From an uncultured Chlamydiales bacterium (GTDB taxonomy: Bacteria > Chlamydiota > Chlamydiia > Chlamydiales > JAAKFR01): a DNA stretch of 64,000 bases. Positions 32,128 to 36,568 of this stretch are shown one piece after another. The notes beneath the pieces are model-generated. The model saw nothing but the letters and a program-made list of their open reading frames with translations. It was not told the origin of the DNA and did not search any database. The DNA lies in the NCBI GenBank assembly GCA_963699155.1, contig OY969414.1, positions 1,195,757-1,259,756 on the forward strand. The letters run 5' to 3'. Both the position numbers and the translations under genes were made by a program. The first letter of the stretch is position 1, and each line of letters starts with the position of its first letter.

Positions 32128-33348
32128 ATGGAAAAGAAAGGATCTGTTTTATCAGCGACGCTTCTCGTTGCGGGGACATGCATTGGGGGAGGAATGTTAG
32201 CCCTACCTGTCGCCACTGGGGCTTCCGGTTTCTTTCCCTCCTTCCTTCTGATTCTTGTCGGCTGGGCTTTCATGACTACCACGGCACTTTTTCTTGCAGA
32301 GGTCAATCTCTGGATGGAACCAGGCGTTCACGTCATTGGAATGGCTTCGCGCTTTTTAGGACCACTCGGAAAGGCAGCCGCATGGATTCTCTACCTCTTT
32401 ATCGGATATGCCTCCCTAGTTGCCTATACGGCCGGTGGTGGAGAGCTCTTTGCAGCGGGTATAAAAAAGGTTTTAGGCATCGATCTCTCCCATACTACTG
32501 CACTCGTTCTCTTTGTGGTCATTTTTGGGACCATCATCTATTTGGGCAATACCATCGTCGGACGTGTCAACACCGTTTTAATGTTTGGATTGATCATTTC
32601 CTATATTTTATTGATTGGCATCGGATTGCCCTATGTGCAGTGGAGACATCTCCTTAGAGGCTCCTTTGGCAATAGTTTGATCGCCATTCCGCTCCTGTTG
32701 ACCATCTTTAGCTTCCAGACCATTGTCCCCAGCTTGACGATCTACTTGAAGCAGGATGCAAGAGCGCTGCGCCGCTCGATCATCTATGGAACGACATTTG
32801 CCTTAGTGATCTATATCTTGTGGCAATTGCTCGTTCTCGGAACTGTACTCTATGAGGGTGATCAAGGTTTAGCAGCCGCTCTCGCACAAGGTAAACCGGC
32901 AACTGAGTTTCTTGGGTCGGCGGTTGCAAACCCGTGGCTAGGGATGATTGCCGACTTTTTTGCTTTCTTTGCACTCGTCACCTCCTTTTTAGGCATCGCC
33001 CTCGGTTTGTTCGATTTCCTAGCCGATGGCTTAAAAATTAAACGGACCCATTTGGGAAATATAGCGCTCGGCTTTTTGGTCGCGCTGCCCACACTCTTTT
33101 TCGCACTGACGTTGGAGAGATGTTTCTTCATTGCGCTCGATAGCTCCGGAGGCATCGGTGATGCTCTTCTCAATGGACTCTTTCCCGGGCTCATGCTCTG
33201 GATAGGAAGGTACCGGGATCAATTGCCCTCCGAGTATAAAACTCCGGGAGGGAAGCCTCTCGTCATTGCCATTATCATCTATGCCCTCTTTGTCTTTACT
33301 GTTGAGATGTTAGGAAAGTTTGGCTTCATCGTCTCATTAGGTGGATAA
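32128..33348 (+). CDS. Aromatic amino acid permease (HAAAP, TyrP/Mtr family)
   Basis: LLVAGTCIGGGMLALP, FALVTSFLG..LGLFDFLAD; many TM helices. Confidence 0.9.
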   Translation: MEKKGSVLSATLLVAGTCIGGGMLALPVATGASGFFPSFLLILVGWAFMTTTALFLAEVNLWMEPGVHVIGMASRFLGPLGKAAAWILYLFIGYASLVAYTAGGGELFAAGIKKVLGIDLSHTTALVLFVVIFGTIIYLGNTIVGRVNTVLMFGLIISYILLIGIGLPYVQWRHLLRGSFGNSLIAIPLLLTIFSFQTIVPSLTIYLKQDARALRRSIIYGTTFALVIYILWQLLVLGTVLYEGDQGLAAALAQGKPATEFLGSAVANPWLGMIADFFAFFALVTSFLGIALGLFDFLADGLKIKRTHLGNIALGFLVALPTLFFALTLERCFFIALDSSGGIGDALLNGLFPGLMLWIGRYRDQLPSEYKTPGGKPLVIAIIIYALFVFTVEMLGKFGFIVSLGG

Positions 33349-33497
33349 ATGAAACCGGAATTGGTCGAAGCCTTGAAAACCCTTCTCTAAAAAGGGAAGC
33401 CAACTCCCCACCCTCCTCAATAAAATCAATCTCTCCTCAAGGGATAATAAAAAAAGTGACAACGAAATAATTTTCTCAAAATAAGGAGAATGAATAG

Positions 33498-33940
33498 ACA
33501 TGTCGGGTGGGTTGCGTCACTTCGTGTCAGCAACCCCCCAGCGACCTAATACCGTCAAGTTAAGGAAATCCGCAGTTATTATAAGGGGAGGGCCCCTCGC
33601 GCTTTGCGCTCGCCCCCCTCCCCTTTTAACCCCTCCCCCACCCATTTTTGGGAGAGATCTGTCGACTCCGCGAGGATATTTGCCAAGACACAACATGGAT
33701 CCTAAATGGCTTCTCATTTATCTGTCGGGCGGTTGCTGACACGAAGTGACGCAACCCACCCGACATGTATATAAGCTGCTTTTTAAGATCGATTGTACTG
33801 TCTTGGTTGCTTAGACTCCATTCTGGAAAATCTCTCCCAAACATGGGCGGGAGAGGGGTTTAAGGGGAGGGGGGCGAGCGAACGTAGTGATGCGAGGGGC
33901 CCTCCCCTTATAATAACTGCAGACTTCCTTAACTTGACGG
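33498..33940. repeat. Interleaved inverted repeats (module A ~38 bp, module B ~135 bp)
   Basis: 33498-33535 is the exact reverse complement of 33731-33768; 33552-33658 is an imperfect reverse complement of 33829-33940. Confidence 0.9.
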
Positions 33941-33960
33941 CATTACCCAGCGACCCCCCT

Positions 33961-35150
33961 TGAGCCGCAGATTGCAAAGCCATATCGCCTCCTCGCTGGG
34001 AGGGTGTGCACAGCACTACCCTCCACGCTTCGCTCAGCTCCGGAAGCGATCTGGCTTTGCAATCTGCGGCCGCGGGCGCCTACGGCGCGGTCCCGCACTG
34101 CCTGGTGCTGGTTAAACCCTGAGGCAGTGAAAGTATCTCAGGTTATATCTTGCGGGAGTAATGCCTCGCCACTCCTGCCTGCGAACGGGGCACTCGCGCA
34201 CTCATTCCCCAGCGTGACTTCGTCTCTATGCTGGGGCCCCTTTCGTGTCAGCTCGTAGACATACCTGGAGGAGGGCCCTTCGCTTCGCTCACCCCGCTCC
34301 CCCAGACCCCTTCCCCCACCCATTGTTCAGGGGGAGAGAGGCTAACGCCGCCTCTCTCCCCCTATACCCCCTCTCTCAGCGGCAAAGGGGCATGCCCCTT
34401 TGCATACCTATAGCCCAACGTACGTGCTTCTAGCTCTTATTATCCAAGAGCTGTGTCCTTCCTAGATACTGCTGAGGGGTTCCAGTAAATGAGACGAAGT
34501 CTCTCAGGGGTATTCGTGCAAACACAAAATCGGGTGGGGGCGCCAAAGCTTCGCAATGGCACGGACCAGTGGAACGTCCCAAGATATGCATACGAGCGAG
34601 ATATGAGAGGTGCCAATCATAAAGTAAGTATGGCTATGTCTTGGGTAAATCACTTCCACTTCGACAAATCTCTCCCAAAAATGGGTGGGGGAGGGCGGCG
34701 CCCCGTTCGCAGGCAAGAGTTGCGAGGCATCACTTTCGCAAGATGTAACTAGAAATAATTTCGCAAAAAGAGCTTCAAGGATGGGTGGGGGTGGGGGCCA
34801 GGGGGAGGGGGGTGAGCGAGTGAAACGAGCGAAGGGCCCTCCCCCAGGTATGTCTACGAGCTGACACGAAAGGGGCCCCAGCATAGAGACGAAGTCACGC
34901 TGGGGAATGAGTGCGCGAGTGCCCCGTTCGCAGGCAGGAGTGGCGAGGCATTACTCCCGCAAGATATAACCTGAGATACTTTCACTGCCTCAGGGTTTAA
35001 CCAGCACCAGGCAGTGCGGGACCGCGCCGTAGGCGCCCGCGGCCGCATCTTGCTTTGCAGATCGCTTTCGCAGCTGAGTGAAACGTGGGGTCTAGTGCTT
35101 TGCACAGACCCCCAGCGAGAAAGCGATATGGCAAAGCAAGATGCGGCTCA
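33961..35150. repeat. Large inverted repeat: perfect 204-bp arms plus diverged hairpin extensions
   Basis: 34065-34268 equals the reverse complement of 34844-35047 when compared base by base; homology continues imperfectly outward to 33961/35150 and inward to ~34324/34781. Confidence 0.95.
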
Positions 35151-35243
35151 ACGGGGACAAGGTACCTCAAAAAGCCTCCAGTGGAGGGTTTTTGATGGGT
35201 TGTCCGAGAGTTCACAAGTTTACTTGTGAACCGAGGGGAAGCA

Positions 35244-35430
35244 GGGGGTTGCTGACACGAAGTGACGCAACCGCCCGACAGATAAATGAGAAGCCCTTTA
35301 AGATCGATTGTGATGTCTTTGTCGTTTAGACTCCATGCAGAAAAGCTTCTTCAAAAATGGGTGGGAGAGGGGTTTAAGGGGAGGGGGGCGAGCGATGCGT
35401 TAGCGAGCGAGGGGCCCTCCCCTTATAATA
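35244..35430. repeat. Third copy of modules A and B
   Basis: ggttgctgacacgaagtgacgcaacc at 35247; 35297-35430 is a diverged direct repeat of 33782-33915. Confidence 0.9.
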
Positions 35431-35441
35431 GTCGACTCGGT

Positions 35442-35858
35442 TTAGAGGTGCACCAGATGACGGAGCGCCTCCTGCTTCATCTTGAGGTAGAGGCTGGCAA
35501 GTCCGTTGGCCCTTCCGGGTGTCAATGCACTGGGGATGCCGATCTCTTCGAGAAAAGTGGGAGGGGAGAGAAGGATCGTTTCGGCAGGCTCTCCGCTATA
35601 GACTTCGATGAGAAGGGCAGCCAAGCCAGCCGAGATGAGGGCGTCAGAGGCAGCATAGAAATAGACCTTCTGGTTTTCATAGCGGCTATAGAGATACATC
35701 AGGCTCTGGCAGCCCGAGACCCGGTTTTCTTCGGTTTTCCAAGCAGGATCAAAGGAGGGGAGCTTCTTTCCCCCTTCCATAATTTCGCTATAGAGAGTTT
35801 CTTTAGTGACTAGGCTGTCGAAGCGTTGAATAAGAGCAGTGGCTTTAGTGAGGCTCAT
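35442..35858 (-). CDS. sufE: SufE family Fe-S assembly protein
   Basis: ENRVSGCQS, SDALISAGL, LTPGRANGL. Confidence 0.9.
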   Translation of the reverse strand: MSLTKATALIQRFDSLVTKETLYSEIMEGGKKLPSFDPAWKTEENRVSGCQSLMYLYSRYENQKVYFYAASDALISAGLAALLIEVYSGEPAETILLSPPTFLEEIGIPSALTPGRANGLASLYLKMKQEALRHLVHL

Positions 35859-36568
35859 AATTCTGGATGGCCTGGAGAGCTGGGGGAGAGGTTATTCGCT
35901 AAAGACTCTAGCTGTGCTAGCTTTGTTTTCATCTCTTCGATGCCCCTTTGCAGAACGTCACGCTGGTTTTCTTCTTTTTCCGGATCATGGCCCAGGTTTT
36001 GCCCTGAGCCGATTTTTACGGCCACTTGGAGAGCGATAAAGAGTCCAAAGACGGCCCCCATGACATAGGGGAAGACCACGGAAGCTGCCAACAGAACCGT
36101 CACAGCGACGGCAAGAACAATCTGTTTTGTTCCATTTTGATCGAGACCCTCGATTCCCTGATTGAGGATATTCCACAGCGTATATTTTCCTTCGGGATCA
36201 AAACTATTTACCGATAAAAGACCGGCAATGAGTCCAAAGGCAGCACCAAAACCCAGTCCAATTGTGAGTGGGAGGGCGACCGCCTTAAATCCATAGAGCA
36301 GCCCTGTGCAACTGATGATGACTCCCCATGTTAGGAGATAGCCGACCAATTGGCGCCAGTTATTTTTGACAAAGGTGGCTGTCTTTCCAAAGGCAGAACC
36401 TAAAGTGGCGACCACAGGAGTGATTCCCCAGGCGATGACCCCCAATGCTGTATCGAGAACCTGATCTGCCTGGCCGAGAGCGCTAGGAATTTTTTTAATT
36501 TCGGCGGTAAAGTCCTTGCGAAAGCTCTCCCAACAATGGTTGATCGATCCAGGAATGCAACAGCTCAT
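35855..36568 (-). CDS. Hypothetical membrane protein (two hydrophobic hairpins, C-terminal coiled coil)
   Basis: Long ORF overlapping the sufE start; start codon choice uncertain. Confidence 0.65.
   Translation of the reverse strand: MSCCIPGSINHCWESFRKDFTAEIKKIPSALGQADQVLDTALGVIAWGITPVVATLGSAFGKTATFVKNNWRQLVGYLLTWGVIISCTGLLYGFKAVALPLTIGLGFGAAFGLIAGLLSVNSFDPEGKYTLWNILNQGIEGLDQNGTKQIVLAVAVTVLLAASVVFPYVMGAVFGLFIALQVAVKIGSGQNLGHDPEKEENQRDVLQRGIEEMKTKLAQLESLANNLSPSSPGHPEL

Follow-up and report, generated by a model that had tools for sequence, protein, structure and literature searches.

A branched, strand-specific hairpin conserved in the arms of a MITE/REP-like mobile repeat of environmental chlamydiae

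Integron attC sites, the ends of IS200/IS605 elements and the attP site of CTX phage are folded single-strand recombination sites. Repetitive extragenic palindromic (REP) sequences are palindromes of 20-40 nt with a GTAG or CGTC tag at one end (PMC3733652), and MITEs (miniature inverted-repeat transposable elements) such as Correia/NEMIS of Neisseria, ERIC/IRU, RUP and the IS982-derived elements of Cardinium (PMC9769881) are small, gene-less, bounded by terminal inverted repeats (TIRs) and dispersed mainly between genes. Here we describe a repeat that shares these MITE properties, a likeness that was judged for Correia/NEMIS, ERIC/IRU and RUP by their general features and not by sequence. It lies in a 64,000-nt stretch (the window) from an uncultured Chlamydiales bacterium (GenBank assembly GCA_963699155.1, contig OY969414.1, positions 1,195,757 to 1,259,756), whose 2,399,326-bp genome we call G000, and it carries two hairpins of about 120 nt each, copies A and B of a module that we call H (Table 1). 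A preliminary description had presented these hairpins as two copies of a candidate structured RNA or single-stranded DNA element. We found that H is no isolated structured-RNA locus with two copies but a module of a dispersed family of MITE/REP-like mobile repeats, and that its fold, a three-way junction, is conserved across the family. The unusual feature is this deep conservation of a branched, strand-specific hairpin in each arm, with no partner enzyme found. The repeat is MITE/REP-like in its features, an identity that the preliminary description had set against its own reading, but no published description of this chlamydial family was found in literature searches or in PMC3733652, PMC13229535, PMC6006769 and PMC9769881, with subscription journals and supplements outside the scope of the search.

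The hairpins themselves are as first quoted. When copy A is reverse-complemented and aligned to copy B, mean column identity is 88%, and each copy has an inverted repeat of its own (I17, 29 nt at 93%, in one; I24, 17 nt at 100%, in the other). RNA folding energies are -78.0 kcal/mol for A(-), -71.4 for A(+), -70.0 for B(+) and -67.0 for B(-), far beyond shuffled sequences (z = -9.6 to -10.8, with none of 200 shuffles equalling any strand), and the A and B strands folded as DNA give z of about -9.3 to -10.2. The three stem differences listed between the copies are all present and pairing is kept in each. Among the internal segments that had been called conserved, the Y and R of gctgagYgaaRcg pair with each other in a mini-hairpin and compensate one another (GCGAAGC versus GTGAAAC). 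The absence of a recognised RNA family was borne out by Rfam: a search of window 32500-36500 at E<=1 gave no match on H, its sole match being MIR7533 on a different palindrome (33604-33883, 55 bits where the gathering score is 230), and a search of five loci from the genomes G031, G070, G122, G048 and G001 at E<=0.1 likewise gave none on H, returning only sub-threshold miRNA-precursor models on the central palindrome of locus L035. Long palindromic repeat cores of this kind (window 33604-33883; L035:1129-1344) match plant and animal miRNA-precursor models below threshold, for example MIR7533 at 55-89 bits, and are a likely source of false RNA annotations.

In its sense orientation H folds into a three-way junction of 38 pairs, 25 of which change on both sides among 39 copies (RNAalifold); a covariance model of H was also built from 39 copies. 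The basal stem, P1/P2, is long and interrupted by 2x2 and 3x3 purine-rich internal loops, P3 is a mini-hairpin mostly closed by a C-GNA-G triloop, and P4 is a hairpin with one bulged base and a 3-nt loop. When 70 sense copies drawn from 11 genomes are compared, pairing holds in 94.0% of cells compared to 79.0% in shuffles, both-side changes occur at 35 of the 38 pairs compared to 20.1 expected, and the covariation score is 0.382 compared to 0.138 in shuffles. None of 500 shuffles reached the observed value of any of the three measures, but these shuffle controls overstate significance, since the copies are related to one another and their alignment had been fitted to the model. Sliding the partners out of register left 29-48% pairing. 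The clearest case is P2, which reads GATCGCTTCC/GGAAGCGAT in G000 and AAAAATTCC/GGAATTTTT or other variants in G031. The unpaired residues of the junction and both internal loops of the basal stem are also conserved across the 11 genome consensuses, and because arm-to-arm copying cannot maintain unpaired sequence, this conservation points to selection beyond palindromy. The original step from covariation to selection on structure holds for the fold, which covaries strongly in additional copies, but not for the compensation seen in the outer stem of A and B, discussed below. We also considered a 'flip/flop' of the inner hairpins like that of adeno-associated virus as an account of the T-shape and rejected it, since antisense scores are at most 40 bits and P3 precedes P4 in all 70 sense copies in which both hairpins occur.

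The family is dispersed within and between genomes. G000 holds 14 copies of H (six full, five split by another module, M, and three with the 3' part only), and a BLAST search with H gave homologues in three relatives out of 40. One of the three is G031, a 1.7-Mb genome from a different family of the same order, which has at least 41 BLAST matches to H (40 of 96 candidates were scored). Within the interior of the unit, BLAST between G000 and G031 still detects H and nothing else. The G031 copies are paired inside units of ~320-590 bp bounded by ATAGACATGTCGGG and its complement CCCGACATGTCTAT, 13 of which were aligned end to end, and the 13-mer core of the terminus occurs 37 times forward and 37 times in reverse (74) compared to 0/1 for a reversed control pattern. 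Wherever a locus has two sense copies, their order is (-,+) with 3' ends facing outward (20 of 20 loci in G000, G001, G031 and G161). The covariance model matches 16 of 150 sampled genomes of the order, G000 included, from at least nine families (at most 24 candidates scored per genome; one genome could not be scored), and H usually occurs there as a divergent pair in a MITE-like unit of ~0.5 kb with common termini. Of 401 genomes of the order, ~10 have the terminus pattern in multiple copies, and most others are at control level.

An exact-pattern scan of species-representative genomes returned 88 stretches, nearly all in records labelled as chlamydiae. An exact pattern for the 3' arm of the G000-type H gave 0 matches in genome contigs, a search that possibly left its own genome outside, and a clean G031 unit compared by distant BLAST to a plasmid collection gave none. 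A few records bearing H (among L124, L131, L138, L160, L165 and others) are labelled Verrucomicrobia or Planctomycetaceae. For two of the Verrucomicrobia-labelled records, the hit places coincide with genomes assigned to the same order as the window genome, so we read these two labels as loose. In one 7.5-Mb genome the single H copy lies where an 11-kb contig ends, a position that could result from transfer or mis-binning.

One resolved locus shows presence-absence polymorphism of a unit between G031 and its congener G224. At this locus, L052, a gap of 688 nt in G031 holds a unit, and G224 has 89 nt between the same flanking genes; the intergenic DNA of the empty site is too diverged to align across the junction. 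At a second locus, L040, the difference is 627 versus 282 nt, taken from spacing only and not from an alignment. H also travels as a passenger: in G070 one arm of the element sits inside a different MITE of ~460 bp with ends CTAGTACTCTGTAACAG..., whose ~18 near-identical copies (L104-L114) suggest a recent burst.

In the window, A and B are the two sub-terminal modules of one composite inverted-repeat element with nested insertions (33494-35287; Table 1). They form the outer ~100 nt of a larger inverted repeat with ~360 nt per arm (33955-34317 and 34795-35156), whose inner 259 nt are 93% complementary and whose outer 99 nt are 81% complementary. The stretch from 33490 to 35430 consists of dispersed repeat modules, each of which has 10-50 BLAST hits in G000, only ~34420-34640 being unique, and its modules recur in 47 nests across the genome. 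The nested insertion P lies in the H-element tail between two exact copies of a duplicated 10-bp target, CCCAGCGACC (33537-33546 and 33946-33955), and itself contains a further nested, termini-only mini element (~33716-33773). Excision of P with one duplicate restores the order terminus, small hairpin, tail, H(-) that is found in G031. Because removal of P gives the G031 order, and because modules M and T are insertions, A and B represent the left-hand and the right-hand H of a single composite unit. Module N has homology to the sequence that lies 5' of H in G031 and G070. Pfam gave no hit on the longest open reading frame (ORF) of the element centre or on the ORFs inside the window element, which is neighboured by convergent genes, a Trp/Tyr permease (+) and an unnamed ORF (-).

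Table 1. Parts of the composite element, with positions counted from the first nucleotide of the window.
Feature	Position	Strand	Remarks
Left terminus ATAGACATGTCGGG	33494..33507	+	14-mer identical to the boundary of the ~0.5-kb G031 units
Small terminal hairpin inside left terminus	33508..33536	+	Equivalent variable hairpin in G031 units
Nested insertion P, 399-bp MITE derivative of a DDE_Tnp_1 insertion sequence	33547..33945	.	TIRs 33547-33600 and 33892-33945
Hairpin H, copy A	33954..34073	-	3' end faces left terminus; covariance model 118.9 bits sense versus 33.2 antisense
Module M	34074..34191	-	~118 nt, adjoins H; borders approximate
Module N, left arm	34192..34317	-	Covarying CCCCAGC/GCTGGGG hairpin; borders approximate
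Element centre: repeat fragments and unique stretch (~34420-34640)	34318..34794	.	
Right-arm modules N' (~34795-34920) and M' (~34921-35038)	34795..35038	+	Mirror 34074-34317 (259 nt, 93% complementary)
Hairpin H, copy B	35039..35157	+	3' end faces right terminus; covariance model 109.4 bits sense versus 26.4 antisense
Module T, small insertion in H tail	35158..35240	+	Terminator-like hairpin 35175-35187; borders approximate
Terminal hairpin on the right (35244-35272), with the degenerate terminus CCCGACAGATAAAT (35274-35287)	35244..35287	+	

The parent insertion sequence of P is present in G000 as three identical full copies (941.4-943.0, 2274.4-2275.8 and 2208.6-2210.2 kb) with TIRs as in P and a DDE_Tnp_1 transposase (Pfam E 1.8e-19); two of them lie in the same H-tail motif as P (CCCNGCGACC) and the third in a partly matching motif. 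This insertion sequence and its 399-bp MITE target one motif, with a duplication of ~10 bp, inside another mobile element. Module M (~118 nt, multi-hairpin, ~45-50 BLAST hits in G000) lies beside H in the window and inside H in five G000 copies (32.6, 321.7, 410.6, 445.8 and 2274.1 kb), at two different points, after P4 in four of the split copies and between P3 and P4 in one. It looks like another small mobile repeat that favours H. Module T, which has a bidirectional terminator-like hairpin between an A-run and a T-run and also a second, perfect hairpin, follows 10 of the 14 G000 copies of H. At 2305.0-2305.2 kb of G000 (L015), the 3' end of H and module T abut the first ~37 codons of a truncated, transposase-like helix-turn-helix ORF.

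The outer stems of A and B proved to be exceptional within the family. The five outer-stem changes that had been listed as compensatory are opposite fill-ins of ancestral internal loops, closed in only 3 of 70 copies. The remaining 67 keep both the 2x2 loop of the basal stem (GA/GG, GA/GA, AG/AT, TA/GA and others) and the 3x3 loop (ACA/AAA, AAA/GAA, AAA/AAA and others), and the copies in which both P1 loops are complementary are A, B and a copy at 2.208 Mb, all in G000. The three other full G000 copies (321, 607 and 2375 kb) read GA...AAA on the 5' arm and AAA...GA on the 3' arm. Copy A retains the 5' arm and has TTT...TC opposite, its 3' arm rewritten as the complement, and copy B retains the 3' arm and has TC...TTT opposite, its 5' arm rewritten as the complement. 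The two outer stems are thus multi-base rewrites of one arm from the other, made in opposite directions, and they make A and B more stable as DNA, with folding energies of -48.5 and -45.8 kcal/mol compared to -33.1 for an ordinary copy, a gain in stability of ~13-15 kcal/mol. Judging from these end states, the mechanism was probably hairpin-templated repair or template switching; recombination between inverted partners in a quasi-palindromic register would give an identical end state. The remaining differences between A and B, in P2, P3 and P4, are true compensated differences and occur as subfamily variants in other copies, the interior of A being common to the 607-kb and 2375-kb copies and that of B to the 2208-kb copy. 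The rewritten arm is the low-coordinate one in A and B (33955-33975 and 35042-35060) and the high-coordinate one in the 2.208-Mb copy (2208.6 kb), and the side may reflect replication direction.

Mismatches in the fold are strongly biased by strand. In the sense orientation, the 70 copies have 90 G.U cells compared to 24 A.C cells (53 versus 21 distinct pair/genome/type cases), and the other 132 non-pairing cells comprise 113 purine.purine and 19 pyrimidine.pyrimidine mismatches. Symmetric mutation of double-stranded DNA predicts equality, and the bias therefore indicates that one particular strand folds. The sense strand is also more stable than the antisense strand in four of four copies folded as DNA and two of two folded as RNA. 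These data fit the single-stranded reading, as RNA or single-stranded DNA (ssDNA), that had been proposed for the hairpins at the outset. The loops bear on which of the two molecules is involved: 42 of 70 P3 hairpins are C-GNA-G (or T-GAA-A) triloops on stems of two to four pairs, ~63 of 70 P4 tips have 3-nt loops, and 4 of 70 P3 hairpins have GTAA (GNRA-type) tetraloops. Loops of 3 nt are favoured in DNA mini-hairpins and disfavoured in RNA, and GNA triloops, according to work attributed to Hirao and colleagues, reportedly form very stable DNA mini-hairpins. The triloops, the 3-nt tips and the mobile-DNA behaviour of the repeat make the folded molecule more likely to be DNA than RNA. A role as a single-strand promoter was also considered and rejected, as conserved -35/-10-like boxes are absent across genomes when inspected by eye.

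We propose that H is the conserved sub-terminal fold of a non-autonomous, TIR-bounded, MITE-like element and serves the element's own mobilisation as a cis site, leaning towards ssDNA, a reading to which we give about an even chance. The unit carries two divergent copies of H, and on either strand the sense copy adjoins that strand's 3' end at the terminus. There the folded H would be read single-stranded, more likely as DNA than as RNA, by a protein that moves or copies the element, and copies that lose the fold would stop spreading. Palindromy may be renewed by hairpin-templated repair (quasi-palindrome correction), which would yield the unusually perfect outer stems of A and B. A bolder form of the proposal, which we regard as rather improbable, is that H is a folded ssDNA site in the manner of attC or the ends of IS608, for an enzyme neither of the Y1 HUH nor of the IS630 type, acting on the 3'-end strand at both TIR-bounded ends. 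If true, this would add a new mobilisation mode in which terminal inverted repeats work together with strand-specific branched hairpins, in an element maintained across many environmental chlamydial families.

Several observations weigh against a role in mobilisation. No target-site duplication is established: the flanks of the unit are a constant A-TA...TA-T, which fits a TA duplication or part of the element end, and with an 8-bp palindrome, GACATGTC, lying within the terminus they allow either a TA duplication or a site-specific mechanism. The templated repair invoked for A and B could alone create much of the apparent covariation without selection, with shuffle controls that err on the generous side as noted above, and the G.U, purine.purine and triloop arguments are compatible with RNA too. 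The search for an autonomous copy covered some of the public data and yielded none, and G031 has no termini paired at a distance of 1-3 kb. When 574 ORFs (>=150 aa) from the surroundings of 80 further loci were clustered, there was no recurrent family beyond spurious repeat frames, the only large cluster (14 ORFs from 13 loci) being frames through the repeat itself. The Y1 HUH domain PF01797 had 0 matches in G000 (100% complete), G031 (99%) and G001 (74%), with two in G224 and one in G122, and the IS630-type DDE_3 domain PF13358 had 0 in G031, G224, G296 and G349, which are the four richest carriers covered, with fragments only in G001.

Candidates for an autonomous or parent element were examined and set aside. 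Termini 5.3 kb apart in G353 resolve into a normal unit, MORN, response-regulator and TPR genes and a solo terminus. A 3.0-kb segment with H-element termini (L170:3871-6876) contains genes for a BlaI-like repressor and a BlaR1-like peptidase together with an unnamed 315-aa ORF. This segment lacks a transposase domain, the H on its left side is truncated, and it is possibly a cargo-carrying derivative. The genes in these two larger candidates are host or cargo genes only. An IS1182 remnant with hairpin-rich ends, ~454 kb upstream of the window element, has no H, the unfiltered covariance model reaching at best 12.9 bits (E 0.063) at 738.5-746.5 kb of G000, where the inverted repeats are other sequences. 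Terminus-like 13-mers 2.6 kb apart at 856-859 kb of G000 are a chance pair around ordinary host genes, as judged by eye from ORF translations without a family search.

The compatibility of the mismatches with RNA leads to the first alternative, that H works as RNA. With both copies facing outward, transcripts that leave the element, or cross all of it in either direction, would carry a sense H at their ends, and this H could serve as a 3' stabiliser, processing site or barrier, or be a small RNA of its own. REP, ERIC and Correia repeats have been proposed as transcript stabilisers, processing sites or barriers. Strand-biased G.U pairs and tandem G.A-type loops would suit RNA equally, the P3 tetraloops mentioned above are of GNRA type, the window element lies between convergent genes, and module T supplies a terminator-like hairpin after most G000 copies. 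However, H has no T-run of its own and no terminator-like site lies at either copy in the window, where the nearby sites (module T at 35175-35187 on both strands, and 33394-33409) total three compared to 2.6 expected, and promoter-like sites number 0 in 33300-35600 compared to 1.0 expected from shuffles. The dominant 3-nt loops would be poor RNA loops on thermodynamic grounds, Rfam has no match, and H rides inside other elements (G070) and is interrupted by insertions in five G000 copies, which is hardly the behaviour of a required host RNA. We consider an RNA role unlikely.

We consider it just as unlikely that H is a functionless old palindrome in a selfish repeat, its covariation being mutational and produced by templated repair, template switching or recombination between subfamilies. 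In-place copying of several bases from arm to arm did occur in A, B and the 2.208-Mb copy, the stem of a further copy is perfect over an extended length (CTTCAGCAGCTG/CAGCTGCTGAAG), and some copies are mosaics: B shares its interior with the 2.208-Mb copy but not its outer stem, and split copies have hybrid P4 arms. Yet templated copying should erase internal loops, and the 2x2 and 3x3 loops persist in 67 of 70 copies and in 11 genomes; the unpaired junction sequence is conserved across families, the strand-biased mismatch spectrum is not expected from symmetric DNA repair, and H is the sole interior part that BLAST still detects between G000 and G031. The least probable account, to which we give little credence, treats H as a cluster of double-strand sites for a transposase or nucleoid protein, with the hairpin as a by-product. 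Sub-terminal repeats of some eukaryotic transposons are inverted double-strand binding motifs, and ATCGC / GCGAT(G), which occurs twice per arm at a spacing of roughly one helical turn, ranks with the best conserved sequence of the 11 genomes. Against duplex recognition, P4 and inner P2 keep pairing while their sequence changes freely, the G000 motif in P1 has changed on both arms (ATTGC/GCAA) and its P2 copy has not, which fits pairing rather than an altered protein specificity, and strand-biased wobble pairs would be meaningless in double-stranded DNA. We rank a cis role in propagation, read from ssDNA, first, with an RNA role and no role tied second.

These findings have practical and biological consequences. 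For annotation, the window stretch and the ~47 nests of G000 are stacks of small mobile repeats, not genes or regulatory RNAs, and covariance read from a single pair of palindromic repeats can be misleading; here the stem difference that stands out most is probably a repair artefact. An old, structured MITE family is shared by environmental chlamydiae; its branched hairpin is better conserved than the rest of the element, and the family includes an insertion sequence aimed at a 10-bp motif inside another mobile element. A partner enzyme, if found, could show how such elements move in obligate intracellular bacteria.

Among described phenomena, quasi-palindrome correction by template switching, reportedly from the work of Ripley and of the Lovett laboratory, replaces several nearby bases by the complement of the other arm, which is how A, B and the 2.208-Mb copy differ from the other 67; it is a mutational process and not an element family, read here from end states, and the H family supplies clean natural cases of it. 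With attC, IS200/IS605 ends and CTX-phage attP, H has in common that structure is conserved over sequence, that conserved unpaired bases mark the active strand and that strand asymmetry is strong. Unlike those sites, it has no integron-type core motifs at its ends (by eye), no cassette array and no Y1 transposase, and its copies are placed symmetrically at both ends of a TIR-bounded unit instead of on one strand; the attC likeness was judged on the ends of H and the layout of copies, with the IntI integrase not searched for.

REP sequences and their BIME and REPIN-RAYT derivatives resemble H as imperfect palindromes with conserved mismatches, mosaic modules, inverted doublets and proposed ssDNA recognition (PMC3733652). 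H differs in being three to five times longer (~110-120 nt) and branched, in ending GCCGCAG.../...CTGCGGC without a GTAG or CGTC tag, in belonging to a unit with true terminal inverted repeats, and in the absence of a Y1/RAYT gene from G000, G001 and G031. Hairpin MITEs and the H element are both found inside other mobile elements, and both have many size variants down to termini-only mini forms. Unlike hairpin MITEs, the H element has no parent insertion sequence found, and what it conserves is not end-to-end pairing but a three-way junction of ~110 nt in each arm, kept in several families with covariation at 35 of its 38 pairs.

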